Part shown: one piece after another, positions 5,009-48,622 of the stretch | How the letters are laid out: every line of letters starts with the position of its first letter | How positions within the stretch are numbered: position 1 is the stretch's first letter | IMG/VR virus record: IMGVR_UViG_3300035498_000179 | Span: 4,941-68,940 of that record | Source: a virus | Taxonomy: Duplodnaviria > Caudoviricetes | Strand: one strand, 5' to 3' | DNA: 64,000 bases | Translations under genes and position numbers: made by a program | The notes under the pieces: model-generated | What the model was told of the DNA's origin: nothing | What the model saw: only the letters and a program-made list of their open reading frames with translations | Databases searched by the model: none

Positions 5009-6682
5009 TTACTTCGACGCATACGCAGACTTCTCAATGTAGAATAACGGAGCACCAATCTTATTACCATGATAGAGAGCAATAATTTGCTTCATCTGGG
5101 TCTTCAGTGACTTGTTATCCATATCAGTACCATACGCTAACTTCACATAGTTAATTACCTTTGCAGGATTAATGTGTGAGTCAGTAATGCCGATGTTCTT
5201 ATAATCCTTAGTAAGACAGATCTTCTTAAGGTTCTTCTCGTAGTTCTTATCGTCTTCCTTCAGGTCTACTATACGATTGATCAGGTCGTCATTAGCATCA
5301 CTGATGAGATTACTATAAGTACCAACAAGCTTATCGAACGCGACATTTTCATGCTGAGCTTTGTCAGCGATACCTCGTGATACAAATACTTGTACCATCT
5401 GAGAAATCTGTTTGTCGTCATACTGCGGGAACTTTGTCTTTAACCATGCGTGAGCAGGGATAATAGAGTGGTTTTCCTGCAGATTCTTAAATACTGCGTT
5501 AGTGAATCCAAGCATTAATGTGCTAGGAGTACTATTCAGCTTATCGAAGATGATTGCCAATATCTGTGCAGTAGGTGCATCTTTCAAGTCGAATGCGGCA
5601 CGTGCGAAATCAACTGCATTCTGCAAGTTAGTTGACATACCGTTCTTCATCTTTAAGATGGAGCGTAAAGCATTTACTTTCTCTTCCTCTGTTGTACAGG
5701 TAGATGCTTCAGGGACAGCAGTAATTGTCTTTACTTTTGCATCTGCGGCAAGGGCATCTTTAGTTTCCTGGGGTGCATTTTCAATAGACTTCTTGAAGTC
5801 TAATTCGAGCTGACCATCAGGAGTCTTAGTACCAAGTAATTTAGTACCAAGCAGTTCATTACCAGCGGCGCGGATTTCTTCAAATATTTGCTGATTCAGC
5901 TTAATGCCGGCTGTTTCTGCGTTGCGGGTAATTTGGTTATTCCACTGGTCGATCAGTACGAACAGCATTACATCTACTTGCTTACCAGTGGACTTATGCA
6001 ATTCATTGAGACCTTCCTTAGTATACTCCTCGCGACGCTTCTGCAAAGCGCTCAGCAAGTCAATACTATGGTTAGCATCAATTGCATCAGTATTTGATGC
6101 ACTAGGGATTGAAAGTACCGGTGCAGGCTTCTTTTCAGGCTCTTCAACTACCTCAGGTGTAATAACCTCATCCTTCTTAGAAGGCTTTTTAGGCTGTTTC
6201 TCTGCCTTTTTAGTAGCAGGCTTAGCAGGCTTCTCTTCCTTCTTAGGCTCTTCTGCGGGCTCTTCAGAGGCCTTTGCAGCTGCTTCTTCAAGCATCTGTT
6301 CTTTTGTCTTAGTGGGAGCAATGTTAACAGGGTTTACAACACCTGTGCGGATGCGTTCTACATCAATTCCATCACCTTCTTTAACACAAGTTACAGGATA
6401 CTTGAGACTGAAAGGCTCACCAGTTTCGGTATTCTTCCAGTTCTCGATAATGTTCTCGATCTTCTTAGCATCCTTCTCAATCTTCCAATTGATACACATC
6501 ATGTGAGGATGCTTACGAAATGCGACAGCCTTCTGATAAACTGTTGCGTTATCAGGAATCTTCGGAGTTTCTTCCTTCTTAGGTTCCTCTGTTGCTTTGG
6601 CAGGAGTAGCTACTGCTTTTGTTTTAACTGTTGCCAAAGTCTTTGCTGATGCGGTCTTCCCGCCTTTGTTTTTCTTACTCAT
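5009..6682 (-). CDS. Large hypothetical protein with a Lys/Glu/Pro-rich N-terminal region
   Basis: 557-aa ORF, no internal TAG, TAA stop. Confidence 0.8.
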   Translation of the reverse strand: MSKKNKGGKTASAKTLATVKTKAVATPAKATEEPKKEETPKIPDNATVYQKAVAFRKHPHMMCINWKIEKDAKKIENIIENWKNTETGEPFSLKYPVTCVKEGDGIDVERIRTGVVNPVNIAPTKTKEQMLEEAAAKASEEPAEEPKKEEKPAKPATKKAEKQPKKPSKKDEVITPEVVEEPEKKPAPVLSIPSASNTDAIDANHSIDLLSALQKRREEYTKEGLNELHKSTGKQVDVMLFVLIDQWNNQITRNAETAGIKLNQQIFEEIRAAGNELLGTKLLGTKTPDGQLELDFKKSIENAPQETKDALAADAKVKTITAVPEASTCTTEEEKVNALRSILKMKNGMSTNLQNAVDFARAAFDLKDAPTAQILAIIFDKLNSTPSTLMLGFTNAVFKNLQENHSIIPAHAWLKTKFPQYDDKQISQMVQVFVSRGIADKAQHENVAFDKLVGTYSNLISDANDDLINRIVDLKEDDKNYEKNLKKICLTKDYKNIGITDSHINPAKVINYVKLAYGTDMDNKSLKTQMKQIIALYHGNKIGAPLFYIEKSAYASK

Positions 6683-6756
6683 AATTTTGATAATTTTAAA
6701 GAGTTATAAACTTGATGAATTCTGTTATTACTTAATATTGCTTCCGATTTGGAAGC

Positions 6757-7104
6757 TCAGGAATCATCGATAATTTCGCTTGTTATTGGCTGTGTAGGAA
6801 AGTGATTAGTGTTAGTTACTACAGTGTCACCAGTAGCTGTATCCTGACCTGTCACCGATGTGTCTTCAACTGTCTCTACAATAGCAGAGGAAGGCTGTGA
6901 CATGGGAGTTACTGCTGTAGTGACTACCACATTACTGGGAAGTTCCTTCTTTGCGTTTGCAACCGCATGTTGGAACCCCATACCTACAACAAAGCCAAAC
7001 AAGATGCAACTGACTAAGTTAGTATACATCTTAGGATTCTTATGCATTCTTGCGAATACAAAAGAAATCAATGCTGCAATGAGCAAATAAATAAAGCTTG
7101 ACAT
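6757..7104 (-). CDS. Membrane protein (two TM helices, Thr-rich tail)
   Basis: 115 aa with two hydrophobic stretches at the N-terminus. Confidence 0.7.
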   Translation of the reverse strand: MSSFIYLLIAALISFVFARMHKNPKMYTNLVSCILFGFVVGMGFQHAVANAKKELPSNVVVTTAVTPMSQPSSAIVETVEDTSVTGQDTATGDTVVTNTNHFPTQPITSEIIDDS

Positions 7105-7122
7105 TGTTATTGATATTATCTG

Positions 7123-7668
7123 TTAATAATTTATTTTTTGCTTTAGCTTTTGTCTGGCTTTATTGAGGATACATTTTACTGTATTCTCTTTCAGACCAAA
7201 CTTGATAGCAATATCTTTGTAGGACATATTATCAATACGTGCATTTAGCAAGTCTCGATATTCCTTTTTAAGTGTTGGTATAGTCTTTAATGCTCTATCT
7301 AACATTTCACTGATTGCGTATTCATCTTCTGGGTCGATTACGTTGTCAGGTAGTTGAATAGGATTATCTTCATCATCGATGTAAGCATCATACTTTTCAC
7401 GCTTGGTATGTCTGATGAAATCTATAGCATTATTGACAGCTATTGTCTTTAACCACATCTCAAATGAGATATGATCTGTATAAGTGTTTAATTTACTGTA
7501 CGCTTTTGCAAATGTATCTGCAACTAAATCATCGGTAAGATCTATATTTCGTACAATCCCATATATAATATATCTGATTAAACCCTTATATTGCTTGTAT
7601 AGCTTTGAAAAGGCTAAGTCATTGCCACTCTTTGCTTGATCTACAAGAGTTATTAATTCTTGTGTCAT
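7123..7668 (-). CDS. ECF (RpoE-like) RNA polymerase sigma factor
   Basis: Region 2 (AKSGNDLAFSKLY...DDLVADTFAKAY...FEMWLKTIAVNNAIDFIR) and region 4 HTH (MSYKDIAIKFGLKENTVKCILNKARQKLK). 181 aa, no TAG. Confidence 0.9.
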   Translation of the reverse strand: MTQELITLVDQAKSGNDLAFSKLYKQYKGLIRYIIYGIVRNIDLTDDLVADTFAKAYSKLNTYTDHISFEMWLKTIAVNNAIDFIRHTKREKYDAYIDDEDNPIQLPDNVIDPEDEYAISEMLDRALKTIPTLKKEYRDLLNARIDNMSYKDIAIKFGLKENTVKCILNKARQKLKQKINY

Positions 7669-7725
7669 AGGCTAAAAGTATTAATGTAGTGGCTAGTAAC
7701 CAACCCAATGATTACTAGCCTTGTG

Positions 7726-8199
7726 TTAAAATGGGAGTTTTTCAATCTCTGTGCAATAGTAAGTACTAATTGCAAAGCAACGTCTATAGAACAAATCTGT
7801 TAGATGTTGTCTCCATTCTTCTTTTTCTTCATTTGTTAGACCAACTACTGCATCATGTGTGCACATATTTGCAGCTATTCTAAGTCGAACAAAACGAGTA
7901 TTTATGCTTGTTAAGCGGTTATTCATTAGATCTTCTAGGAGCGGAGCCCATAATCTTCTGTTTATCCATTTAACGGTTTGCATATTTGTTTTATTCCAGA
8001 TAATCTTACTTGATAAAGAATCTGGTATTACAGCAGTATCTTCTATTATACTATCTGCTTTACCTAAGTATTCTACATTAGGTAAGTTATTGATAGTTTT
8101 AGGATTACTGTCATAAACTAAATCTAAGTGAAACTGATATTTTGGAGTATCAGCAAGTCTGTCATTTAAGTTTTTTATAAGCTCTTTGAAAGTACACAT
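7726..8199 (-). CDS. Hypothetical protein
   Basis: 157-aa ORF coupled to the upstream gene (TAATG overlap at 8199). Confidence 0.7.
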   Translation of the reverse strand: MCTFKELIKNLNDRLADTPKYQFHLDLVYDSNPKTINNLPNVEYLGKADSIIEDTAVIPDSLSSKIIWNKTNMQTVKWINRRLWAPLLEDLMNNRLTSINTRFVRLRIAANMCTHDAVVGLTNEEKEEWRQHLTDLFYRRCFAISTYYCTEIEKLPF

Positions 8200-8648
8200 T
8201 ATGCCATATGTTTGAGTCTGTTAATGATGTTAGTTATGACAAAATTTGCTTGATTCAATTTGAGCTTATAGTTGGTCATTGCATATATAACTGTTTTACG
8301 CCATGCAAGATCTTTACCAGCAGGTAATATGTCTTGATAGAACTTAGTTATGTTTTCTCTAGCTTCATCTGTAATGTCAGCTTTTTCAAATGCATAAGAT
8401 ACATCAGTATCTTCAAGTATTGCATCTGATGTAGATGGTTTAGAGAAGATATAATTTTCAGGATACTGCATAATAGTCATAACTTCAATAGAATCCTTAC
8501 TAAGTTCTCTAGCAACACCAGTTTTATAGAAATGGTTTAAATCGATTGCGCCCATTACTACCAGCATTGGGGATGTACCACTTAATCTAAGAAGTACATT
8601 GATGTTTGCGCCTTTTGCAATCCAAAGACCTTCTTTTAACTCAGTCAT
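8199..8648 (-). CDS. Hypothetical protein
   Basis: 149-aa ORF in an operon-like run. Confidence 0.7.
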   Translation of the reverse strand: MTELKEGLWIAKGANINVLLRLSGTSPMLVVMGAIDLNHFYKTGVARELSKDSIEVMTIMQYPENYIFSKPSTSDAILEDTDVSYAFEKADITDEARENITKFYQDILPAGKDLAWRKTVIYAMTNYKLKLNQANFVITNIINRLKHMA

Positions 8649-8654
8649 AATTTA

Positions 8655-8843
8655 TTATTTTTGATTTTCTTCAATTAAATTTTTGAATCTTGAATATACT
8701 ATCGCAGCTTCAGCATTATTTATGTTGAATGCCTTAGATACTTCTTTGCAGAACTCAAATCTAGGTAAACCTTTTTCAATTATAGAATTGAGTAATTCAC
8801 GTTCACCAGGTTTGGTCCATTTAACATACTGAATTATTTCCAT
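8655..8843 (-). CDS. Small hypothetical protein
   Basis: 62 aa, tightly packed with neighbours. Confidence 0.6.
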   Translation of the reverse strand: MEIIQYVKWTKPGERELLNSIIEKGLPRFEFCKEVSKAFNINNAEAAIVYSRFKNLIEENQK

Positions 8844-9115
8844 GATTCTTCTAATTTGTAGATTTTGAAAGCTATTTGTCGCCAGTATTGAGGACCTTCT
8901 TTGGTTTTATCTGGATTAATCACTCTATCTATAGGGTGTACTCTAAAACCAAGTTTAATATTCTCCAATCCGCGTTTCCAATTACGACTCCCTTTCATTG
9001 TATAAGGAGTTTGATCATACAGATAGTTAACAAAAGCAGTTAACTTTTTTTCTTCTCTGAGGACTTGGTCCCAAGAGGGTGGCAAATTTGCAATAATTGC
9101 TTTTTTAAGTGACAT
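8834..9115 (-). CDS. Hypothetical protein
   Basis: 93 aa, overlaps its neighbours by a few nt. Confidence 0.6.
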   Translation of the reverse strand: MSLKKAIIANLPPSWDQVLREEKKLTAFVNYLYDQTPYTMKGSRNWKRGLENIKLGFRVHPIDRVINPDKTKEGPQYWRQIAFKIYKLEESWK

Positions 9116-9425
9116 ATCTTTTAAATTGATGTTCTATATTACCAATACGTATTATTACTTCAGACCAATTGCTATCATGGGTTATGAAATCTCGGATTTC
9201 CCGGATATGTTCCATACTTTTGCTGCTATTTTCATTTCCACGATCATCAATCATGTTGAACCAACCTATCCATGATTTTCCGTTTGTGTTTCGCACAATG
9301 ACTTGTACATGAATATACCAGAAAGCAACGTGCACTCGGTATAGCATACTTCGGAATTTTAGTATATTCTTAGTTATGCCTGTGTTCGTTAGTGCATGTT
9401 TTGTATGTCTACCGCGATTACTCAT
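9105..9425 (-). CDS. Hypothetical protein (likely start MSNRGRH at 9425)
   Basis: In-frame ATG at 9425 overlaps the end of the upstream ORF. Confidence 0.55.
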   Translation of the reverse strand: MSNRGRHTKHALTNTGITKNILKFRSMLYRVHVAFWYIHVQVIVRNTNGKSWIGWFNMIDDRGNENSSKSMEHIREIRDFITHDSNWSEVIIRIGNIEHQFKRYVT

Positions 9426-9630
9426 AACTTTTCCACGCGCTGTAATTGCTTTCACGAATAGAATGTTCAAGTGACCAAAGCGTTGCTAATGCTCTGTCAA
9501 TACGTAATGTAATTTCAATGTCAGTGGTTTGTCTTCTCAATTGTTTTAATCGACCAGACATCTGTGCTACTACACCTAATGAAAGGTTGCGTACACAGGT
9601 TCTTTTTTGATTTTCTGTTTTTGTTGCCAT
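9418..9630 (-). CDS. Small hypothetical protein
   Basis: 70 aa; first ORF downstream of the tmRNA locus. Confidence 0.55.
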   Translation of the reverse strand: MATKTENQKRTCVRNLSLGVVAQMSGRLKQLRRQTTDIEITLRIDRALATLWSLEHSIRESNYSAWKSYE

Positions 9631-9669
9631 TTTAATTCGAATTAAAAGTTTGATACTAGTAAATAATTG

Positions 9670-9715
9670 TGTGAGGGAGGGATTTGAACCCTCCTTTCAG
9701 TAAGCCAACCTCACC
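9670..9715 (-). ncRNA. tRNA-like mini-element (acceptor-type stem plus T-arm, no D or anticodon arm)
   Basis: Minus strand reads GGUGAGG-15 nt-GAGGG UUCAAAU CCCUC-CCUCACA: a 6-bp acceptor-like stem and a canonical T-arm. Confidence 0.55.
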
Positions 9716-9960
9716 CAGCTTTATACGACATTAGCTTAGCCGTGCTATACTTGTATCACGCAGCGATACGAGTATAGTCTGTTACAAAAGTGTTGCCAAT
9801 TATGGCGTTATGACCTATTCATTATGTCGATGTCACCCGTCAAAACCACAATGCCCCTTTGTAGGATATCGTGGAGCATGAGGGATTCGAACCCTCGTCC
9901 GAACGATTGCATAATGACCTAACAGTCATAGTAGCCTAGGGGGCGATCAAACCCCCTAGA
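9716..9960 (-). ncRNA. ssrA: Circularly permuted (two-piece) tmRNA, predicted tag (A)GNTFVTDYTRIAA
   Basis: The acceptor piece GGAC-GAGGG UUCGAAU CCCUC-AUGCUCC-A (ends 9872) precedes a 14-nt spacer and the 5' end GGGGCAU-UGUGGUUUUGAC (starts 9857). It has the G3.U70 Ala determinant. P2 pairs 9819-9826 with 9910-9917 and 9809-9814 with 9925-9930. The tag frame 9797-9756 follows AUAAUU and ends in Ala-Ala-TGA. Confidence 0.85.
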
Positions 9961-10446
9961 CTTTGAAAAACAACCTTAAAAACAATATAACAAAGTGATA
10001 CAAAGCATTAGAGCATTGCTGTATCGTATGTAACACATTAAGCTTATGTATTTAAAGTTAATAGATCTTTGACAGAATACATATCATACCAAGTGCTCAT
10101 TCTATTGCTAGAAGACTCGATTGAAGTATAGGCATAAAAGCATTATACGTATATGTATTTTGATATACTTACTGTTTATTCGTCTATGAGACTACACCTC
10201 ATCTTAACCGCGATTCGCCACTGCATTAAGAAATCACATTTTTAGCATAAAGCATTTCATGCTTAGAGGTATGATCTATTTATAGCGCATGATCAGTAGG
10301 CATATATTATCCACCACTTACCATAAAGTTATCATGGTGCTGTCAATTCAGCCATATCATCTGCCGTAGCCTCGAATTGAACAATTCCCTGTACGTGTCT
10401 AGATGATTTTCGGATTTAGCATAAAAGCGTTATCCGGGATAGTCGG

Positions 10447-10818
10447 TTAATAACGCCAAGCGTCTTTACCGTAGACGTCCTTCTTAGCCTTAGCCAGAGC
10501 TTCGTCCTTCTCAGAGGCAATCTTCTGACGAGCTTCGTCATAAGCCTTGTAATCGCCAGTGGCTTTAAAGGCTTCAACAGCGTTGTTCATGTCATCTGAG
10601 TACTTCTTCAGGATGTTTTTATTCTTTGATGCAAAGCGACCATCACGTGCTGCTTCTTCGATGATTTGGTTCGCACTCTCAAGGCGACGCTGTACCTCAT
10701 AAGATTCGCGTTCTGCCTTATCCTTTTCCATACGTTCCAGCGCAGCAGTTACTGCAGCAACCTGTACCTTACCATCATTCTCTTCCTGTTTCTTTACTGT
10801 GTCGTCAAAATTTCCCAT
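10447..10818 (-). CDS. Hypothetical coiled-coil protein
   Basis: 123 aa, strong codon bias. Confidence 0.75.
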   Translation of the reverse strand: MGNFDDTVKKQEENDGKVQVAAVTAALERMEKDKAERESYEVQRRLESANQIIEEAARDGRFASKNKNILKKYSDDMNNAVEAFKATGDYKAYDEARQKIASEKDEALAKAKKDVYGKDAWRY

Positions 10819-11052
10819 AATTGTAAAATTTTAATTGTTAATAATTGATTTAATTGAGTGATTGCTTTTTGATAAAGAAAGATTATCTCATTTATTTGTA
10901 TGTCTTATTCGTGAGTATCCCTTTTCCTTCTTCTGACCACTAATGTGGTTGACCGTTGTATAGTCCGTAGTACTCTTGCTTTTAAGCTTCCTTTAGGGGT
11001 TTGGATTTATAATCTTCCTAAATTGTAATGTTCCTTTTTCATGTTGTACACT

Positions 11053-11178
11053 TTAAAAGTTCTTATTACGGTTATAAGGCTCCATTTTGCAATGGCGTAC
11101 CTTTTTCTTACTGCGATATTCGCTAGCTTGCTGTGCTTGTTTGGAACCTCTATAAGATTCCTTATAAGTCTTACTCAT
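11053..11178 (-). CDS. Small basic peptide (MSKTYKESYRGSKQ..., 41 aa)
   Basis: ATG 4 nt after the upstream stop, TAA stop; below the ORF-track cutoff. Confidence 0.5.
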   Translation of the reverse strand: MSKTYKESYRGSKQAQQASEYRSKKKVRHCKMEPYNRNKNF

Positions 11179-11182
11179 AATA

Positions 11183-11575
11183 TTACTTAGCTAAACATGT
11201 ATTTGCTGTTACAATCAGCTGATATACGCCTGCTGCGTTACGTCTGAGTAAAGCATCCTGTGTAATCTTGCGATTATCAATCAGGAATTTCAGCACATTT
11301 TTACTGATAGCACCATTAGCTACAGCTGTCATAAAGTTAGCTGAGAACTTATAGGTGTTAGAATGATTACCACCAATAGCGAGCAAGTCTTCAACTGTTC
11401 TATCTATTGTGGCAACAAGATTGTCAGGTTTTACCTCTTCAGGGATAAAATCTGTAGCGTTAAGTACATTGATTTTAACTTGTTGGCAATTAGTAATCTT
11501 AGCGATTTCAGTGCCAATTAACTCAATGTGTTCGTCACGTGTGCTGCTAGGTACAGCGATGATTAATAATTTCAT
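11183..11575 (-). CDS. Hypothetical protein
   Basis: 130 aa; the leader TTCATATCAAATG is shared with the gene at 11869. Confidence 0.7.
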   Translation of the reverse strand: MKLLIIAVPSSTRDEHIELIGTEIAKITNCQQVKINVLNATDFIPEEVKPDNLVATIDRTVEDLLAIGGNHSNTYKFSANFMTAVANGAISKNVLKFLIDNRKITQDALLRRNAAGVYQLIVTANTCLAK

Positions 11576-11593
11576 TTGATATGAATTTAATGG

Positions 11594-11869
11594 TTAATTA
11601 ATTTTAGTAATTATCAATTTAGACATGTCAGCAGATCCATTGAAGTCACGAATAACTTCTTTGAGCTGTTCGAATGTAAAGCGTTCGGTTCTTACTTTTT
11701 TACTTTCTGTAATTGTTACGCTATAAGGCGCTTTAGATTCTTGAAAAGTACAACCGCATCGTTTACATGTTACACGACGTTCTGTTTTTCGGTCAATACC
11801 GTTACCAAGAACGGCTGAGATATCCCAATCATGACCGATACATTTACAAATAAGTTTTTTGTAGTTCAT
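11594..11869 (-). CDS. Small putative Zn-binding protein (C..GH.W...CxxC)
   Basis: CKCIGHDWD...CKRCG motif. Confidence 0.6.
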   Translation of the reverse strand: MNYKKLICKCIGHDWDISAVLGNGIDRKTERRVTCKRCGCTFQESKAPYSVTITESKKVRTERFTFEQLKEVIRDFNGSADMSKLIITKIN

Positions 11870-12079
11870 TTGATATGAATTTTAAGGGCGCCTAATAATA
11901 TGCAGATTATTAGGATATTACACATAGTTACTGCATTAACTTCGAGAGTTATTATACCGCTGTATAACATATTAACTTTTGTTACGACGGTTTGAGTTAA
12001 CTTCTACTCATTCTATGACATTTCTTACGTAGTTTACCTCGTGAGTAGTATATCTTTGTCATCAGATATACTCATTGGA

Positions 12080-12168
12080 GTGCATGATTTTAACGCCTGC
12101 ACGATCACACCCGCTTGACTAGTATGGGCTAGTGCTTACGCCCCACATGCTTGTCATTTTCTGAAGGA
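12080..12168 (-). ncRNA. Hatchet-like self-cleaving ribozyme, variant copy
   Basis: CAAGCAUGUGGGGC...GUGCAGGCGUUAAAAUCAUGCA. Same core blocks as the 13979-14062 copy, with a different central hairpin region and a short P1. Confidence 0.6.
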
Positions 12169-12217
12169 CCTCAATCCTGTTTCACAACTGTATTGAGGCA
12201 CAATAAGTATAACATAA

Positions 12218-12658
12218 CTAGATAGAAGCTTTTAATGAGTCTGATGATGCGATTGGTGTATTCGCAATCGGTATCTTTGGCAATGAGTCTGGAATAATAC
12301 TCTTCTGCGTTTCCATTGCCTTTAATACTGTTTCATCATAAAATCTTTTATGTGCGAGATATTCTGTAACAATCTCTTCTACATCTAATTGAGTACCACA
12401 TTGTACCAAGATGAATGTTAAGATAGGCTCAGGCATAGCCAAGAACACACTATCATTATACTTCTCGATACGGAGGTCATTCTGCCATTTCACCCATTCG
12501 GTGATTGACATACTATCGTCCACTAAACTGGAATCAACCACTTCAGTGATTTCATCACTCTTTGTGCTGCGAGTAAATTGTTCACAAGCACAGAAAGCCA
12601 ACATTGTTACGAACAATGCCAGCATTGAAACTGTTCTAATGTTTTCTAAATGTTTCAT
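12218..12658 (-). CDS. Putative lipoprotein
   Basis: Basic N-terminus, hydrophobic stretch and lipobox-like LAFCAC. Ends at TAG (12 more codons to TGA if read through). Confidence 0.65.
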   Translation of the reverse strand: MKHLENIRTVSMLALFVTMLAFCACEQFTRSTKSDEITEVVDSSLVDDSMSITEWVKWQNDLRIEKYNDSVFLAMPEPILTFILVQCGTQLDVEEIVTEYLAHKRFYDETVLKAMETQKSIIPDSLPKIPIANTPIASSDSLKASI

Positions 12659-12688
12659 TTGTTTAAATTATTATTGATTAATAAAGTG

Positions 12689-12877
12689 TTATGCCAAATA
12701 GATTAATTCTAATAAAGCAATAATTGCCAACATTACGAGCATTAACATATTACATACGTATATTTGTTTGTAAAATGGACATTGTTTTCTGTAAATATTA
12801 TTGTTTGTCGGACAATATTGTGTGTTTTGATAATCACACTGTTTACAGATCAGACTTCTGTTTTCTTTTCTTTCCAT
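12689..12877 (-). CDS. Small Cys-rich membrane protein
   Basis: CxxC...C...C followed by a C-terminal TM segment. Confidence 0.5.
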   Translation of the reverse strand: MERKENRSLICKQCDYQNTQYCPTNNNIYRKQCPFYKQIYVCNMLMLVMLAIIALLELIYLA

Positions 12878-12987
12878 GATTGTCTGGTTGTTTATGGGAT
12901 TCGATAAAAAGACATATGATCATTCCGAATATAGCTATGTTCATTCCTGCTAAGGAATAGAGCATATAGAGTACAGGATTTTCCATA

Positions 12988-13359
12988 TTATAAGTTCTTT
13001 TCTAATCCATCATTTAATTTCTTAACAAGGTCCTCTGCCAAATCAATCATATGGTTTGTTTGTTCAACATTACCATAGTCTTTAACAAGTACATTTAAGT
13101 CTGGGTTTATTGCGCCCCATACTTGACCAAGTGATCTAAAGAATTTCTTAGGTGCATGAGTATAATCGTGTTCATAACGATTTACTTTGACAGTTAGAGT
13201 GTCACATTTTTTACACAATGTGTTAACTTTTTCTTGCGAGCTACCTAATTCTTGTTTCAGTTTGAATATATCGTTGCGCAATTCATGAGCATCGATATAC
13301 GTGTAAATCAGTAGTAATAATAACATTATGTTACTTGCTACTGCTAATGGTACTAACAT
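12988..13359 (-). CDS. Membrane-anchored coiled-coil protein
   Basis: N-terminal TM segment followed by a coiled coil. Confidence 0.65.
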   Translation of the reverse strand: MLVPLAVASNIMLLLLLIYTYIDAHELRNDIFKLKQELGSSQEKVNTLCKKCDTLTVKVNRYEHDYTHAPKKFFRSLGQVWGAINPDLNVLVKDYGNVEQTNHMIDLAEDLVKKLNDGLEKNL

Positions 13360-13402
13360 GTTTTCCTCCTTTTTTTAATTGTTTTTAAATTGTTAATTAC
13401 TG

Positions 13403-13476
13403 TGGACCAGCTTGGGTTTGAACCAAGGACCTCTAGATTATGAGTCTATTGCTCTAACCAACTGAGCTACAAGTCC
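13403..13476 (-). tRNA. tRNA with CAU anticodon, most likely tRNA-Ile2 (lysidine type); elongator Met is the alternative
   Basis: GGACUUG UA GCUC AGUUGGUUA GAGC A AUAGA CUCAUAA UCUAG AGGUC CUUGG UUCAAAC CCAAG CUGGUCC A. The G1-C72 pair argues against fMet. The anticodon arm GACUCAUAAUC resembles bacterial Ile2. CCA is not encoded. Confidence 0.85.
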
Positions 13477-13978
13477 GTTAATATTCACTTAGTTCTCCAT
13501 GCATATATACAGCAGAACATTAATACTACAATAAAGTAAATTTCTAGCATCATGATTTTAGATTTTAAACCTCACCTATTTTCACAAACAAGTGAGGGGT
13601 GTAGAATAATAATTAAAACACACAAGATTAATACTATTCAACTAAGTATCGTAAATATGAAAGAAATGTGTACAAATAAACACCCTAGCAATCCCGCTAA
13701 CACTTTTGTGCCTGTTCATACTAGGGTGTACTGGTTATTACTTAGCTGCCAGTGCAGCAAGACCGACGGTCATAAAGGCCACGGTAGCAATCAAGTGTAC
13801 CATAAAAGTAGTTTTTAACATTTAGAGTGTTAAACAGCATAGATTTAGGTAACTCGGTTGCGCGTCACTTTATCTCAAACTAAAAAGGGGACTATCCTCT
13901 CTAGGACAATTAGTTATACAACTCAGTGACAATTGAGTAGTGTAAACGAACGAAGAGTTCCATATGTTTTTGTATAAC

Positions 13979-14062
13979 TGCATGATTTTAAAGTCTGCAC
14001 TAATACTAGTTTAAAACTAGATATAAGCCCCACATGCTTGCCACGGATTCTCACCGTTGAGA
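13979..14062 (-). ncRNA. Hatchet self-cleaving ribozyme
   Basis: CAACGG UGAGAAU CCGUGG CAAGCAUGUGGGGCUUAUAU CUAGUU UU AAACUAG UAUUAGUGCAGACUUUAAAAUCAUGC. Near-identical in P1 loop and core to the published env10 hatchet as recalled. Confidence 0.85.
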
Positions 14063-14150
14063 CAGTTTAGTTAAGTAAATGTCACTATCTTCACAGACAA
14101 TGACATTTTAATGACAAATCCAAATGTTGAATTGTAGAGCTATTCAGATT

Positions 14151-14798
14151 TCAGTCGCACTGTGTATTGTACACTCGCTTGTGAATGTGGTAACATTCGT
14201 TAACAAGTGTTATCTTATTTGTAGCTATTTCAAATACTACATATCCGCCTGTAATTGATTCATAGTCAATGAATATTGCAGCGGCATAGTTTTGTGCGTA
14301 AGTATCAGCTGTAGTTGTTTTTGCCCATACTAAATCACCATACATAAACGATTTAGGTGGTGTGTTTGATGATTCATTACGCTGTTTGCGTTTGAGTCCT
14401 GATTTTTGATCAGACTGTGCTTCATATTCAGCTTGACCCACCAACACACCAGAGTATTTCTGTTCTAAATCTGAAGCATATTTACGAAGTTCTTCGCATT
14501 TAGCTTCTTTTTTATTGTATTTGACTCTAAGTGATTCATATTCACTTTTGAGTGCTTCGTGGTCTTCTTGTAAGACCGCATATTCTTGCTGTTGATGAAT
14601 AAGTCTGTTATTCAAGTCATCAACATCACCTGTGAGTTTAGCATTTTTAGTATCTAAATTATCACAGATATCTTTTGCTGCATTATATCGTGCTTCAAAA
14701 TCATGACAACGCTTACGTAAATCGTTAAGTGTTTTCTTTATAGCTATGATATTTTGACATAATTTAGCAAAATCAATTTGAGTTTCATTTGTTTCCAT
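14151..14798 (-). CDS. Coiled-coil hypothetical protein
   Basis: 215 aa with a long heptad region. Confidence 0.7.
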   Translation of the reverse strand: METNETQIDFAKLCQNIIAIKKTLNDLRKRCHDFEARYNAAKDICDNLDTKNAKLTGDVDDLNNRLIHQQQEYAVLQEDHEALKSEYESLRVKYNKKEAKCEELRKYASDLEQKYSGVLVGQAEYEAQSDQKSGLKRKQRNESSNTPPKSFMYGDLVWAKTTTADTYAQNYAAAIFIDYESITGGYVVFEIATNKITLVNECYHIHKRVYNTQCD

Positions 14799-14936
14799 TT
14801 TGATATGGTTTAAATGTTAATAAAAACCAGAGAGGACATATTCTGATCAACTTATTTTGTCCTGATCCCGTCTTTTGAAGATCGTAAAGGATTGTTACTC
14901 TGGAGGTACCAATTGGTTTAGTAAAATAACCTGAAC

Positions 14937-15122
14937 TCAATCAGATTGTTTCTGCTGAATCATTGCGACGAAATAGATTTGTTCTGTTGAATTTGTTTCG
15001 TTGTAATATTCTTTGTTTAATGCACTACAGAATTCATGCGCTGCCATAATGTTGTTGAACGATTTGATTACTGTAGGTTCAAAGATTGCATAAGTCTTGA
15101 TAACTAAATACTGCTTTTTCAT
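14937..15122 (-). CDS. Small hypothetical protein
   Basis: 61 aa in a packed operon. Confidence 0.55.
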   Translation of the reverse strand: MKKQYLVIKTYAIFEPTVIKSFNNIMAAHEFCSALNKEYYNETNSTEQIYFVAMIQQKQSD

Positions 15123-15127
15123 TGTTT

Positions 15128-15418
15128 TTAATCTTTTAAATCGTAATTTTGAATATTATTAACCCAGAATTTACCTTCGCTGAGTTCATCGAAGACACCA
15201 TTATCTGAAGCTAATACCATTACATTGTTATGAAACAGTTGTTTCAGGTATTCCCAGTCAGGTGTTGTTAGTTCGGTTTTTAAAGCAAAACCGATACAAG
15301 GGTCGTCATCACTGAAAGGAGTGAGTTCAACATTGCGTGTACCAAAGTAACTTGTTACTTGTTCACGAAGCGGTGCTGAGAATTCAATACCGCAGATAAT
15401 TACAAATTGTGTGATCAT
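15128..15418 (-). CDS. Hypothetical protein
   Basis: 96 aa in a packed operon. Confidence 0.6.
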   Translation of the reverse strand: MITQFVIICGIEFSAPLREQVTSYFGTRNVELTPFSDDDPCIGFALKTELTTPDWEYLKQLFHNNVMVLASDNGVFDELSEGKFWVNNIQNYDLKD

Positions 15419-15423
15419 AATTA

Positions 15424-15636
15424 TTATATTAATTTGATTCTTTTGATATGTACACGTTGTGGACTATTTTCAACTGTTACGTCAGGGAATAGGTGGCTTC
15501 TTAATTCCATCACATACGTGTCCTCGCAATCAGGTGCGTAGAATACGCCTCGGAAGTCTACTTCTGGCATTCGGTCGTATAAGTACAGCTTACCTCCGCT
15601 GTCTCTTGCAATCCAGAATTCTTGTTTTACTTTCAT
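15424..15636 (-). CDS. Small conserved-type phage protein (WIARDSGGKLYLY...LFPDVT.ENSP)
   Basis: Motif commonly seen in Bacteroidota phages (recalled). Confidence 0.65.
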   Translation of the reverse strand: MKVKQEFWIARDSGGKLYLYDRMPEVDFRGVFYAPDCEDTYVMELRSHLFPDVTVENSPQRVHIKRIKLI

Positions 15637-15638
15637 AA

Positions 15639-16118
15639 TTATAACAATATTGACGCTGTTTTAAACAATTCAAAAAATGTATCATAAAAGTGTTGTGCTA
15701 CTGGTTCGTAAGGGAATGCGAATGTGTATTTAATATGATAGGACTGAATTATACTAATTTCTGTTTCCGTTCTTACGATACAGTATTTCGGTAGCGTATG
15801 GTTGTACCAATCCAGATGTGTACCACTCATCCATGCTGTATAACAGCAAAGTAATCGTGTAAGTGCTAACAATGCGCCCGAGTATTTTTCAGGGTGTACA
15901 TTTAATACTTTACGATAGTCGTCTATTTCATTTTGTTGCAGACGCTGTATCATAGAGTTATTATCAATGTAGCTCATTGCGTAATCTTTATAGTACAAGT
16001 ACTTCACACAGTCTTCCCATGTTTCAGGGAATTTGTTTTCTTTCAAGAATATTGTATTACCGTCAAGGCGATCAAAGACCATATTATCAGGTATTACAAT
16101 TTTTTGTGTTGTTTCCAT
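15639..16118 (-). CDS. Hypothetical protein
   Basis: 159-aa ORF. Confidence 0.7.
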   Translation of the reverse strand: METTQKIVIPDNMVFDRLDGNTIFLKENKFPETWEDCVKYLYYKDYAMSYIDNNSMIQRLQQNEIDDYRKVLNVHPEKYSGALLALTRLLCCYTAWMSGTHLDWYNHTLPKYCIVRTETEISIIQSYHIKYTFAFPYEPVAQHFYDTFFELFKTASILL

Positions 16119-16129
16119 TGTGTACGGAA

Positions 16130-16240
16130 TTAGTTAGACGCTTTTAAAAGCTTTTTAAGCTTTCGGTAACTTGTCACCTTCTTTGCTGGTTGTGTAGCCT
16201 TATAGGCTGCAAACAACTGTTGTTTCTTTTCTGTTTTCAT
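16130..16240 (-). CDS. Small basic peptide (MKTEKKQQLF..., 36 aa)
   Basis: ATG with an A-rich leader, TAA stop 12 nt before the next start. Confidence 0.4.
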   Translation of the reverse strand: MKTEKKQQLFAAYKATQPAKKVTSYRKLKKLLKASN

Positions 16241-16780
16241 TGTGTTGAATTTATTAGTTTGATACTGATTTAACTATAAAATGCCTGTCTTTCCAGGCTG
16301 CCAACTATCATCATCACCTTGCGAATAGATTTCTCGCATTCGAAGCCATTTTCACCTGTACTCTCGGTGGTCTACCCAACTTACTAATTTAAAATATATA
16401 CTCACCTTATGGTAAGTAATTTAAAATACACACCATCCTATTAATCCCTTATGTAGACGTCAGGCAGAAATAAGTGTATATTAAGCAGTTTAGACTCATG
16501 CTTGGGAGTTGCTGTTCTGTTACAACCATTACATAATGCAGCTCTTCATGTAATAGCTCTCTTGTCTTTTCCAAGGCCAGCAGAAGTTTTTTACCTTATG
16601 TGGTTTATCTGCATTCTCCACTGCCTAGGACTTATTGAGCACGCCTAGGATTTCCAACGCTCGTAGTTGAAAGTTTAAAACATAATTAAATTGCCTAAAT
16701 TAATAGGACTTTAGTGGTTAGTTAAATAGCCCACGTTGAGGTTGAGCTATATATTAAATACAAAAAGGCCGAAGCCTTGG

Positions 16781-30008: not shown

Positions 30009-30160
30009 GTCAATTAACAGATAGAGAACTGTTAGAAAGTATATATCTGATGTTAATACAGGTATATAACAAGATCAATAATGATGGTGAATCTCTAGCT
30101 ATCAATCTATTTGCAGACTTATTAGGTACACAACTAACAAAAATTACAGGATATGAATAG
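29999..30160 (+). CDS. Small protein (MELSQLTDRELLESIY...); TAG stop or 17-codon extension
   Basis: ATG at 29999; the TAG overlaps the start of the next gene. Confidence 0.6.
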   Translation: MELSQLTDRELLESIYLMLIQVYNKINNDGESLAINLFADLLGTQLTKITGYE

Positions 30161-33100
30161 GTAGAGTTTCCGAGAAAGAATGAAACAATACAAGTAGGCT
30201 AGGGAGAGTAATCCCTAGCTGAAGTATTGGGAATGGAAAGAGATTCCTAGATACGGTGATGGTACAGCCGCTGCAAATGCTAGAATAACTAAGGCTATTG
30301 CAGAAAAGCGTGCACAAGCGTTGTAGGAATCGAAGGATAGGGAATTGCCTACACCTGCATACAAAGGTGGCAAACGAAACCCGCAAACTGCATTTGAATT
30401 CCAAGCGCAAAAAACAGCATTGCTAGCTGATGTAGACAAGGAGATAAAAACAGTAGAACCGTATACAACAACTGTTGTAAATGGTAGGACTATTCCTGGA
30501 CAAATGGGATTTAATCAAAAATATATAAGGCAATACGGATTAAAATCTGCAGACGATGTAATGTCTGAATTGCAGGAAAAACGACGCAGGATTATAAATC
30601 TGCAGTATTCTCCTACAATAGGTGGTGCACTTGGTTCAACCTGTCTTGCCACATCTACTTCGTTCTATGGTCCCGAATATATAATGTATGCAAATAGCGA
30701 ATTCGTGAATACTCCTGCATCGAAAAGCGGTTTTAAAGAAATACCCATAAAAGACGTGGAACCATCAGATATTGTGATACGTACAGCAGATAATGGCAAC
30801 ATGCACGCGATGATGTTCAACCGCTATGACGAAAATGGTGAACGTAGATATAACCATAGTAATGGTGGTTACGAAGCAGAAAACATGCGTAAGGATGCTA
30901 AATACCCAGCCAGAGAAGATCAATTGCGGGCATTCAGATATACTGGTACACATCAAGATAGTATACAATGGGCTAAACCTAAACAGTACAGGGATGGTAC
31001 GGACGGAATTACTGACGATAGCGTCGAACCAAATAATTCATTATATCTCGGTAAGTCTGGCACAATGGATATTAGTGGTAAACCAGCATATCAAGACGCG
31101 TTAGGTAACTGGTCTATATATTATAACCCCAATCAAAACTTAGAAGACCAAAATATCTGGTTGCCAGAAGTGTCCGTTAAACCTAGTGGCGAAAACTACT
31201 GGCATTAGGCTGGTAAACAATTCGGTAACTTTGTGAAAGACGCAGCTTATTTTGCACCAGGGTTAGGTGTTGGTATGAATATAGTCGATGCGTATAACGC
31301 AGAAATGGAGGGTGACCATGCCAAGGCCGCAATACTTGGTGGTATGTCTGTGTTACCAATGCTTGGCAAAGCTTCACAATTCGGTTTATAGACTGCCGGT
31401 AGATTTGGTAATTCTTGGGCAAGGGCCAAGTTAATATCAGATGCTATTGTGCCTAAGACAGGTATTGGTGAACGATTAATCGCTCCTGCTGCACGTAAGA
31501 TAAACAAGGCATGGGATGAGAAAGTGAGATTCCCGTATATGCAGTATAAAAGACATGTGGCGTCTATTGGTGAACCGGGTCCTTTCGGTGAAATACAGTT
31601 TAGACCTAAAGAAGTTTTACACGATTTGGTGTAGAATAAATACGGAATTCCAAAAGAGATTTTACCAGATGCTAAGGAGACACTAGAAAAATTCCAAGAT
31701 AAATATAGAGGCTTTTAGCAATATTACCAAGATAGTCCTCTTTACGATCCTATAAAATTTCAAACCGCACTGAAAGGTTGGAGCACTAACGCGGACGGAT
31801 ATTATGATCCTCTAAGAGCTTACGAAATTAAAAGAATATTTAATGAGGATCCAAGATATTTCGATTACGTTGCAAAATTTGGTGGTAATCCTCTGGATTA
31901 GAAAACTGTTGACGCATTTATAAAAAAATAGTTTAGAAGTGTTCGTGGAGCAAGATCCTATACCGATGAATACTTTGAACTATTTCCTGAGCACCGTGGA
32001 GATGAAATGAATTATCCATCTGATCGCAGTATAGGCAAGATTTTAACTGAAAACTCTGAAGGACATACAGGTGGTGATAGACTTGGCACGAATGCTACAG
32101 GTATATATACATCAAATAGCTCCGGAATTATGGACACGTTTCAAAGACCTTTTGATGCGGGACGTGGTGATGTTGTGTCTACAGCAGCTATTCTAGAATT
32201 TCCGTATGAAAACGACACAAACTTACCAATAATATAGCAACTTCGTAATGCACGAGGCGCGATTTATGATTATGACTTAATGCCGCATAATGATGACCTG
32301 CAGGAACTTGCTAAATTAGGATATGTTGCAAAACAAGCGGTATATTCAAATAGATTTGGCCAGACGATTCCTGCTTTCGAGCGTGCATATTTTGGCAGCG
32401 TACCTAATAAAAAATTACTCAACATCGTAAACAGTATAGACAGCCGGGGGTTACAAAATAAAGGTGGCCGATGGGGATTTAAAGGATTCGAATCAGACGA
32501 GGTATTAGAATCGCAATTATTTGCAGGTGCTAACATCGGATACTCGTCCTGGGATTACGAACGTGCTGCAAACACAGTATTAAAGCTTCGCAAGCCTGTA
32601 GATAATCCAGAATTTAACAAAAAAGTTCAAGAAATTTGGACCAATCATGTGCCAATATGGTAGGGCCAAGATTTTGATAGAGGTTTAAAAAAAGTTAGGT
32701 TTACAAAAAACCGCCAAAATCTAAAAGACTTCTCTGAAAATTTTGCTATGGCTGGAATGGGAATAGGTACATTTGGTGGGATATTCGGACCAATAATTTA
32801 CGGTTTAGCCGCATAGAATGATCCAGAGTATAACGAGTTTATTCAAAAATATAACATTGACGACACAAAAATCAAGCACGGTCGTAAAGATAAATTATAG
32901 GAAATATTACACGATCAAGGGGTAAATGCCGCATTAAATTACGTGGAGAGTGTGCTTGGCAGCTCTTACGAAAATGTAACGGTTTAGCCTGAGCGTAAAT
33001 CAAAAGGTGGTATAATCGGCTACGACGGTGGTTCTGATGGTATTCCCTATCAGCCTCATTCTGAAATCCAATGGTATAGAGATAAAGATGGTAAACTAAG

Positions 33101-34112
33101 ATAGCGTGTTACACCAGGTAATGGGTTCTTATCCGCAGCTGACCCAGTTAGTCAAGCTTACCTCGAAGGAGTTGCTCTAGGCCCTATAGCTAATAAACTG
33201 TTTAGAGCTGGTAAAGATATACTAAAGAAGGGTGTTTAGAAGTTGCTACCTAAGACAGCTAATAAAGCGTTAGCCAATACAGCGGCCACTACAGTTACAG
33301 ATGTGCCATTATATGATATCGCTAGCGATGAAAGTAAAGCGTTAATAGATAACACCTTTGCGACAGGTATTAATAATTACACCGATTATCTGAATTCACA
33401 ATGGGCGCGGAAATAGCTGAATCACATATATAACAGCGGTGAAGGAGTTGTTGGTAGAAAAGCAGCAGATGACTACGCTTTACCTATTAGCACCTTTAAA
33501 ATGAAAGCCAGTGTAAAAACACCGGAGAAACCGTATGGCCAGTTTAATCTGAATTACGAAGCTGGCGACGGTAGTGCTATTGCTGCAACACCGTGGACAC
33601 CCGGTAAGGACTTCACGCTTTATGATGGTTACATGATGGATGCTGTTGATCAAACTGGCTTACCTAGACTTTACCAAATAGCTGGACATGAAGCATCACA
33701 CTGGTTAGATAAGGAAGTTGGATATAATGCTGATAGATTCCTTGAGCATCTTGCAGATAAAAGTAATATGCTCAACCTTAAAGACTGGACGGCTAAAATG
33801 AAAGCTGCTGGTCGATTTATAGATAAAACCGATGACCAAATCGCAAATTATTATAATTACCTTACTAGGCCAACTGAGGTTAAGGCGTACCTTAGCGAGA
33901 TACCTAGAACCAACTTCGTAAACGGTATGGAAGACTTAATGCCTTATAAGAATTTTGAAGAAATGCAGGAAGCTGCTAAAGGCATGTCATTACAAGTAGG
34001 TGATATACTCAACTTATACGCTGATAAACAAAAAGCATTTAACAACTTGAAACGATTACTATGGAGCTCCCCAAGTTTAATGATGCTAAACAAGAAGAAT
34101 AAATCTAATTAA
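30153..34112 (+). CDS. Large multidomain virion/ejection-type protein, code 15 (~18 TAG), 1319 aa
   Basis: Track ORFs 30345, 31449, 32007, 32280 and 33501 share one frame and are separated only by TAG. It has a Cys/His region (GSTCLA...DIVIR...HAMMF) and a C-terminal HEASH motif. Confidence 0.8.
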
Positions 34113-42337: not shown

Positions 42338-42531
42338 TTGTACAGAATTATGAAATATGTAAGTCTGTGAATGATTATCTACGTTACAGTAGTGTTATCA
42401 ATTTAGACCAGATTTACAATCTTACATGCGCAAACTACATCAAAACATTAAAGAACCACAAATACAGCGGTTGGTTGAGTATCGCTCAACGCGCGAAATT
42501 AAACAGTCTGATCAACCAATTAATTAAGTAA
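42334..42531 (+). CDS. Small structural-region protein
   Basis: 65 aa, coupled start and stop. Confidence 0.6.
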   Translation: MIVQNYEICKSVNDYLRYSSVINLDQIYNLTCANYIKTLKNHKYSGWLSIAQRAKLNSLINQLIK

Positions 42532-42532
42532 T

Positions 42533-48500: not shown

Positions 48501-48622
48501 GTACAACAATCGGCATCGTAAATTCTAAACGAATTGATGAGTTGGAGAAGGAGAATAGAGAGTTAAAGGCTACACTCAATAAGGTTATTAACATATTGAA
48601 TACATTAGGTTATGAGTTATAA
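42533..48622 (+). CDS. Giant tail fibre/spike, code 15 (5 TAG), 2029 aa, with a C-terminal S74-type intramolecular chaperone
   Basis: Five track ORFs in one frame joined at TAG 42554, 43100, 43916, 44921 and 47960 (RTIWG[Q]SFNGSANVSG). Contains HTH metal-binding fibre repeats and a C-terminal TSDMRYK...G..AQ...LPELV...LNY motif. Confidence 0.85.

Follow-up and report, generated by a model that had tools for sequence, protein, structure and literature searches.

The window, as the whole stretch of 64,000 nt analysed here is called, is part of a 68.9-kb IMG/VR virus record that is 69% complete. Its portal protein is 74% identical to that of the crAss-like phage cr6_1 (Crassvirales, Suoliviridae, Afonbuvirus). 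On the plus arm, the region from about 24.7 kb (24700-64000) is open only when TAG is read as an amino acid, and the frames at 42524-48622 (+; 2032 codons) and 30138-34112 (+; 1324 codons) contain 5 and 18 in-frame TAGs, respectively. The minus arm, which bears the hatchet ribozymes, follows the standard code and has no TAG-dependent long frames. The source is a TAG-recoded crAss-like phage of the Crassvirales. No suppressor tRNA was detected in the window by ARAGORN. Two relatives (L011:2884-2958 and L014:1347-1421) carry an amber-suppressor tRNA (anticodon CUA) on the strand opposite to the hatchet island, at a distance of about 9 kb.

An RNA island was identified on the minus arm by Rfam and ARAGORN searches. 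In the order of transcription it comprises hatchet ribozyme 1, tRNA-Met(CAU), hatchet ribozyme 2, RAGATH-9 and a permuted tmRNA (Table 1). This order recurs in many crAss-like contigs that were retrieved by the hatchet core pattern. The islands of these relatives often hold RAGATH-14/6/7 further upstream and a tRNA-Leu instead of tRNA-Met. RAGATH-14, RAGATH-6, RAGATH-7 and RAGATH-7-assoc were located 5' of the hatchets in L010:2601-7626, L018:4464-10846, L017 and L020, in which two tandem hatchets 100-140 nt apart are often present; none of these four RNAs was found in the window at E<=1. Within 6484-9735 of the RefSeq genome of cr6_1 (L130, NC_055894.1), a hatchet that is not annotated there (90.8 bits) occurs together with RAGATH-9, RAGATH-7-assoc and a group I intron that adjoins an annotated endonuclease gene.

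The 20 neighbouring ORFs were compared with Pfam and PHROGs. The sole assignment was an ECF-type sigma factor at 7123-7668 (-), a 181-aa ORF with Sigma70 region 2 and region 4 that is annotated in cr6_1 too. No nuclease, ligase or kinase was found among the 20 ORFs. Searches of the phage record, at its 69% completeness, detected neither RtcB (PF01139) nor RNA ligase (PF09414); RtcB was found in the control genome of Bacteroides thetaiotaomicron.

The first-pass annotation had described hatchet 1 as lying in the early arm, after ORF 14151-14798 and 5' of tRNA-Met(CAU), and had called the hosts of this ribozyme class unclear. The position between the two genes was borne out on the minus arm. A standard-code arm opposite a TAG-recoded arm fits the term early arm, although early expression itself is not thereby demonstrated. 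The statement on hosts is outdated. The contigs of crAss-like phages are rich in hatchets, in agreement with a 2026 preprint in which Rfam hatchets fall largely within Crassvirales.

Table 1 Features of the hatchet island in the window (a slash within a site marks the cleaved bond)
Feature	Position	Strand	Basis
Upstream ORF, 215 aa, coiled-coil-like	14151..14798	-	ORF list; sub-threshold coiled-coil matches only (Pfam, PHROGs)
P0 hairpin, 14 bp, GUGA loop, 5' of the cleavage site	14077..14108	-	RNA fold
Hatchet ribozyme 1 (Rfam RF02678), P1-P4 plus 4 nt 5' of the cleavage site	13980..14063	-	cmscan
Predicted scissile bond U14060/C14059 (-1/+1)	14059..14060	-	First paired P1 nucleotide and 5' end of the joined RNA
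P1 hairpin, CAACGG / CCGUGG, 6 bp including one A.G mismatch, loop UGAGAAU	14041..14059	-	Rfam alignment
Circle 1, 171-nt head-to-tail joined RNA, hatchet plus 91-nt 3' module	13889..14059	-	Contigs, 4 runs
Long stem-loop of the 3' module, closing stem AGUUAUACAA / UUGUAUAACU	13912..13979	-	Fold
P0' hairpin, AUUGUCCU-AGAG-AGGAUAGU, inner part resembling P0	13891..13910	-	Folds
3' processing site ...UAGUCC/CC (C13889/C13888)	13888..13889	-	3' end of circle 1
tRNA-Met (CAU)	13402..13476	-	ARAGORN; Rfam 65.9 bits
Hatchet ribozyme 2 (3-bp P1 form), scissile bond U12165/U12164	12082..12168	-	cmscan 73.8 bits
Circle 2, 279-nt head-to-tail joined RNA, ends ...AUUAUUAGGCGCCC/	11886..12164	-	Contigs, 4 runs
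RAGATH-9 RNA	10876..11030	-	cmscan 122 bits, gathering score 75.2
Permuted (two-piece) tmRNA	9665..9963	-	ARAGORN; Rfam RF04321 48.5 bits

Hatchet ribozyme 1 scored 90.3 bits over model positions 1-133 in cmscan with Rfam 15 (gathering score 51; E = 1.4e-17), and the RF02678 match was reproduced in two more Rfam scans. This match is too strong for chance to be an explanation. The minus strand from 14063 to 13980 reads GUCU-CAACGG-UGAGAAU-CCGUGG-CAA-GCAUG-UGGGGCUUAUAUCUAGUUUUAAACUAGUAUUAGUGCAGACUUUAAAAUCAUGC. The motif strings that the annotation had listed (the P1 loop UGAGAAU, CAAGCAUGUGGGGCUUAUAU, the P4 hairpin and UAUUAGUGCAGACUUUAAAAUCAUGC) are all present on this strand. The full-length match and the intact conserved core verify its claim of a canonical hatchet, and its coordinates of 13979-14062 captured the element with the position one base off. 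The upper-case consensus of RF02678 is matched everywhere except for one G>U change (GACGUU to GACUUU), which is common to the hatchets of the related phages L009 and L006.

Four helices, P1-P4, are present in hatchet 1; P2 is formed by GCAUG/CAUGC, and P3 and P4 are short hairpins. The 6-bp P1, the upstream P0 and the cut at the 5' base of P1 are likenesses to the family, in which P1 typically has 3 or 6 bp and P0 is present in about 90% of the members (Li 2015, PMC4604424). Hatchets self-cleave in an Mg2+-dependent reaction that yields a 2',3'-cyclic phosphate and a 5'-OH (Li 2015, PMC4604424). The conserved nucleotides in hatchet 1 are CAA at 14040-14038, UGGG at 14032-14029, GUGCAG and AAAAUCA. 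The highly conserved nucleotides of hatchets are the C20-A22 linker, U28-G31, G63-G66 and A73-A75 (Zheng 2019, PMC6561176, where the hatchet name env10 is used). The P1-P4 architecture, the CAA linker and the conserved L2 nucleotides are the same as in the published hatchets (Li 2015, PMC4604424; Zheng 2019, PMC6561176). Hatchet 2 represents the other common form of the family. The linker between P0 and the cleavage site of hatchet 1 is 16 nt long and ends with GUCU; the usual linker is a few nt.

The crystal structure has a U1-A19 pair in P1, and cleavage is directly 5' of the first P1 base (Zheng 2019, PMC6561176). With the first paired base of P1 taken as +1, the scissile bond is assigned to U14060/C14059, and the position of about 14060 at the base of P1, as annotated from the sequence, is therefore correct. 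This predicted bond is also the 5' end of a joined RNA that was found in four metatranscriptome assemblies.

The stretch is present in seven public gut metatranscriptome runs, and four of them were compared over 9000-16500. The RNA evidence consists of assembled contigs, and the four runs may stem from one campaign. In all four assemblies, a contig of 201 nt was found that reads 13888-14058, preceded by a second copy of 13888-13917 (30 nt). A second contig of 309 nt, again in four of four assemblies, is composed of 11885-12163/4 and a 30-nt repeat. A length increased by k-1 (30 nt) is the written form of a circular k=31 unitig. Both joints have an ambiguity of one base. When they are set at the hatchet sites, the first RNA extends from C14059 to C13889 (171 nt, circle 1) and the second from U12164 to C11886 (279 nt, circle 2). 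The 3' end of circle 2 is located 16 nt before the ATG at 11869.

Within this one-base ambiguity and at the contig level, the 5' ends of both joined RNAs are the predicted scissile bonds of their hatchets. The location of the 5' ends of two independent joined RNAs on both scissile bonds is taken as evidence that both ribozymes cleave in vivo. Neither the phage DNA record nor IMG/VR contains the circle-1 junction sequence. There are also linear contigs that share the final 30 nt of each circle and extend further downstream, which indicates that unprocessed or DNA-derived sequence is also present. The same head-to-tail k-mers could arise by reverse transcriptase (RT) template switching if a linear 171-nt RNA were abundant; even so, both ends of the 171-nt RNA would be real. 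The junctions predicted for relatives (CGTCC+TTAAGG... and TAGTCC+TTAAGG...) had 0 matches in JGI metagenome contigs, where matching metatranscriptomes are perhaps absent.

Two other readings of the joined RNAs were rejected. The skip joint 14060>13888, which ligation of exons across the excised piece would leave, was found in none of the four assemblies. The circle lengths of 171 and 279 nt are multiples of 3, yet every frame has stops, which rejects an endless ORF.

It had been proposed from the sequence that the early polycistronic RNA would be cut upstream of the tRNA to leave a structured 5'-OH end. A downstream RNA of this kind that simply runs on to the tRNA does not agree with the second end at C13889, which is 171 nt downstream and joined to the first. 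The two defined and joined ends indicate that the ribozyme makes up the 5' portion of a cassette that is excised and probably circularised, and is not just the site of a single intercistronic cut. We infer that the closure is covalent. Under a model with a single intercistronic cut, the upstream mRNA would be parted from a downstream RNA with the ribozyme at its 5' end, the joints would be RT or assembly artefacts, and the AGUCC module would be an unrelated conserved hairpin or terminator. Cleavage by hatchet and HDV-like ribozymes occurs at the ribozyme's own 5' end and lends itself to 3'-end formation of upstream RNAs (Zheng 2019, PMC6561176), a U-run follows the 3' site (CCUUUUUAG), and circles are not provable from contigs, all of which would suit a single cut. 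However, each of the two hatchets has a precise junction exactly at its predicted scissile bond, identical in four of four runs, and an artefact would still need a discrete RNA ending at C13889. A single cut is thus regarded as unlikely.

The tRNA-Met(CAU) is located 412 nt downstream of the 3' site of the cassette and 503 nt from hatchet 1. This distance of 412 nt past the end of the cassette led to the rejection of hatchet 1 as a direct processor of the tRNA. The 412 nt between them (13477-13888, -) contain no ORF of more than 32 aa, and an RNA contig spans 13917-13650. A P0-like GUGA hairpin at 13597-13570 (-) is followed by UUUAAAAUC, and a hydrophobic ORF of 22 codons is present at 13553-13485 (-); membrane-like ORFs of 56-64 aa occupy the equivalent place in relatives. 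No sequence homology between the hatchet-tRNA gap of the window and those of the relatives was detected by blastn, and the architecture alone is common.

Other joints were observed in the same RNA assemblies. The deepest RNA contigs (up to 381x) cover 16279-16500, where a joint 16405>16437 skips 31 nt in three runs. Loose ends at positions 16350 and 16484 point to a small RNA, conserved and abundant, that Rfam does not include. In the region of the permuted tmRNA (9665-10313), the joints 9747>9880 (skipping 132 nt) and 9899>10290 (skipping 390 nt) were found in 2-3 runs, and loose ends were seen at positions 9718 and 10313. The joints may represent processing of the two-piece tmRNA, or relatives that share its conserved parts.

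The 3' part of the cassette was compared among hatchets. In a second pattern scan, 78 unique hatchets with a GAGAAU P1 loop were collected, largely from one metagenome and phylogenetically related. The motif G[UC]CC is strongly enriched 60-100 nt 3' of these 78 hatchets and is present there in most of them. Two 20-nt bins hold 69 matches, compared with 0-3 in each of the other bins up to 240 nt, and no enrichment is seen in the antisense control. A lesser peak at 300-340 nt corresponds to the second hatchets of tandem pairs.

The largest group includes the window, L009, L006, L028, L064, L076, L078, L096 and L118, among others. Its order is hatchet, long stem-loop, U-rich linker, a hairpin of 5-6 bp with the loop AGCG, AGUG or AGAG, and (U)AGUCC. 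Circle 1 ends with ...AUUGUCCU-AGAG-AGGAUAGU-CC, that is, P0' and then CC, directly after the conserved AGUCC. The long stem and P0' covary, with 3-4 Watson-Crick pair types per stem position in 22 relatives. In a second group, which resembles L003, the long stem is followed by CCAAGUU...CGUCC, and the predicted products of 167-173 nt are near the 171 nt seen for circle 1. The unit of hatchet 2 ends with ...hairpin-CGCCC/, and cr6_1 has hairpin-ACGUCC/UCAA at the equivalent place, before the next ORF. A conserved hairpin lies 2-6 nt before the 3' site. The published hatchet model stops at P2, whereas the unit described here adds a 3' module (long stem, P0' and AGUCC) and a second site.

The 3' site mimics the native cleavage site of the hatchet. 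In the window, the native site of hatchet 1 is GUCU/C and its 3' site is GUCC/C; the corresponding sites of hatchet 2 are UCCU/UCA and GCCC/UUA. Similarly, the pairs are UCU/UUA and UCC/UUA in L003, CCU/AUA and CCU/AUA in L037, and UCU/UUAU and UCC/UUAU in L068. Overall, 45 of 73 unique hatchets have their own site (-3..+3) copied 45-135 nt downstream, compared with 5/73 in the antisense control and 0/73 in the sense control at 180-270 nt. None of the 13 first hatchets of tandem pairs has a mimic site. For these, another route must be invoked: the second end could come from the downstream hatchet's own cut, and the P0 of that hatchet would act as P0' for the upstream unit.

Pairing of the 3' site with P1 was analysed with sites picked solely as the last GYCC within 50-140 nt. 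The bases from +1 onward pair with the 3' strand of P1 over at least 3 bp in 46/51 (90%), compared with 8.3% of background positions. The site and P1 covary: a P1 3' strand ending ..GG occurs with CC in the window, ..U with A in L037, and CCAUAA with UUAU in L068. Independent covariation events are few, since P1 varies little in sequence among the hatchets sampled. At positions where the native strand is mismatched, the 3' sites of the window and of L072 do pair. This better match favours pairing over a relic duplication. In the window itself, the alternative P1 comprises two C-G pairs only and competes with the native 6-bp hairpin. The copied site and the pairing with P1 above background also stand against the single-cut model, since a terminator needs neither.

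These data suggest that a conserved cassette of about 170 nt, with the hatchet at its 5' side, is probably cut twice and joined into a circle, and the same ribozyme core is the favoured agent of the second cut. The cassette comprises a P1-P4 hatchet, a long stem-loop, P0' and AGUCC. The minus-strand transcript would be cut by the hatchet at U14060/C14059. A second cut would follow at C13889/C13888, the mimic of the native cleavage site. There, the bases after the 3' site may transiently replace the 5' strand of P1 to form an alternative P1 of 2-4 bp, and the same core could then cleave. Bimolecular hatchets cleave substrates that are held by P1 alone (Li 2015, PMC4604424), and natural hatchets with a 3-bp P1 occur, hatchet 2 being an example. 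The short downstream fragment would then leave. The released 171-nt RNA would carry a 5'-OH and presumably a 2',3'-cyclic phosphate, and P0' may set the cyclic phosphate end in the pocket beside the 5'-OH. Closure head to tail could occur by the reversed ribozyme reaction or by host RtcB. The expected by-products are an upstream mRNA ending in the P0 hairpin and a downstream RNA starting with a 5'-OH; for hatchet 2, this downstream RNA would start 16 nt before the start codon.

The cassette may instead be excised and circularised with the 3' cut made by a protein endoribonuclease or an unrecognised second ribozyme, and with host RtcB sealing the ends. The nuclease would be a hairpin-specific, metal-independent enzyme of the host or the phage that leaves a 2',3'-cyclic phosphate beside P0', and the sole reason for the mimicry would be that the junction, once sealed, has to fit the hatchet pocket again. 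The conserved hairpin 2-6 nt ahead of the site and the weak alternative P1 of 2 bp in the window are in line with such an enzyme. RtcB is common in Bacteroides and was found in the B. thetaiotaomicron control, and the identity at -3/-2 of both sites is also selectable by the junction alone. However, the bases +1..+4 lie outside the circle, and such a model accounts neither for their covariation with the 3' strand of P1 nor for their ability to pair with it in 90% of cases. Neither an RNA ligase nor a candidate nuclease was found nearby, and a permissive Rfam scan of 11800-14130 gave no other ribozyme family at E<=10. A protein nuclease or another ribozyme for the 3' cut, with ligation by RtcB, is quite possible, and we consider it less likely than not. 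The second cut by the hatchet core itself, with P1 exchanged, is the reading that we prefer.

The cassette was compared with other systems in which ribozymes process RNA. Theta (HDV-like) ribozymes were reportedly described by Kienbeck in 2024 beside tRNAs in gut phages. They are alike in their 5' cleavage, in the recoded gut phage and in the nearby tRNA gene. They abut the 3' end of the tRNA and trim its trailer, whereas hatchet 1 is located about 500 nt upstream of the tRNA. In the engineered twister/RtcB system known as Tornado, circular RNA is expressed between flanking ribozymes. Retrozymes and the tandem ribozyme pairs of RNA viruses (PMC13725137) resemble the proposed cassette in that their cuts leave a 5'-OH and a 2',3'-cyclic phosphate, which are then ligated. 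The same holds for Tornado. Retrozymes, tandem pairs and Tornado have a ribozyme at each end. Here, one ribozyme is detectable and the second site resembles a substrate mimic: no second family was found at E<=10, and an ORF starts 16 nt past circle 2.

Circular RNAs bearing hatchets have been seen in metatranscriptomes (Lee et al. 2022, bioRxiv 10.1101/2022.07.19.500677). The 'asymmetric viroid-like' cccRNAs of that study are alike in having one hatchet, one polarity and a low G+C content (about 35%). They measure 357-567 nt, are mostly aquatic and were treated as replicators without a DNA source. In contrast, the circles described here measure 171 and 279 nt, come from gut samples and are each encoded once in a dsDNA phage genome. 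The circular unitigs in four RNA assemblies are contig-level evidence of what may be a covalently closed circular RNA; a replicon without a DNA template does not agree with circle 1, which is encoded once in the 68.9-kb phage DNA record.

The cassettes might still be selfish, viroid-like or retrozyme-like circular RNAs with no function for the phage. They would have entered phage DNA as copies slightly longer than one unit, and the cleavage-site region would thus be present at both ends. Several cassettes per genome, tandem copies included, the likeness of P0 and P0', and the earlier classification of hatchet circles as viroid-like (Lee et al., bioRxiv 10.1101/2022.07.19.500677) would accord with this view. 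Against it, the order hatchet-tRNA-hatchet-RAGATH-9-tmRNA is kept across many phages, and the likeness past the site covers 3-4 nt only and tracks pairing, not identity. No target-site duplications or repeats were seen. Selfish RNAs are thus a quite improbable explanation.

Hatchet 1 itself is an ordinary member of a known family, and the occurrence of hatchets in Crassvirales is already visible in Rfam. A literature search, which was not exhaustive, found no paper on a hatchet circle encoded by a DNA phage, on the conserved 3' module or on the mimic cleavage site. The hatchet class reportedly goes back to Weinberg in 2015. To our knowledge, neither a natural product nor a role had previously been described for the hatchet family, and hatchet, pistol and twister-sister ribozymes have been without either since their discovery in 2015. 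The window offers a natural role that can be tested, in a conserved phage cassette with both ends defined in RNA data and apparently joined.

A broader proposal is put forward tentatively, as something possible rather than probable. Hatchets may be natural self-circularising RNAs, in which one core cuts both sites by a swap of P1 and then reseals the ends. P0, long without an explanation, would be the element that closes the circle beside the active site, and the 'viroid-like' hatchet circles of metatranscriptomes would be transcripts of DNA phages (Crassvirales and others) and not RNA replicons. If the role of the window's cassette is confirmed, the hatchet motif would be extended by a 3' module and a second site, and P0 would be explained. 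A one-ribozyme route to circular RNA would be available, which would be useful for RNA engineering. A class of supposed viroid-like RNAs would be re-assigned to gut DNA phages. The cassette also illustrates the way in which transcripts from the RNA-rich, standard-code arm of crAss-like phages are cut up.
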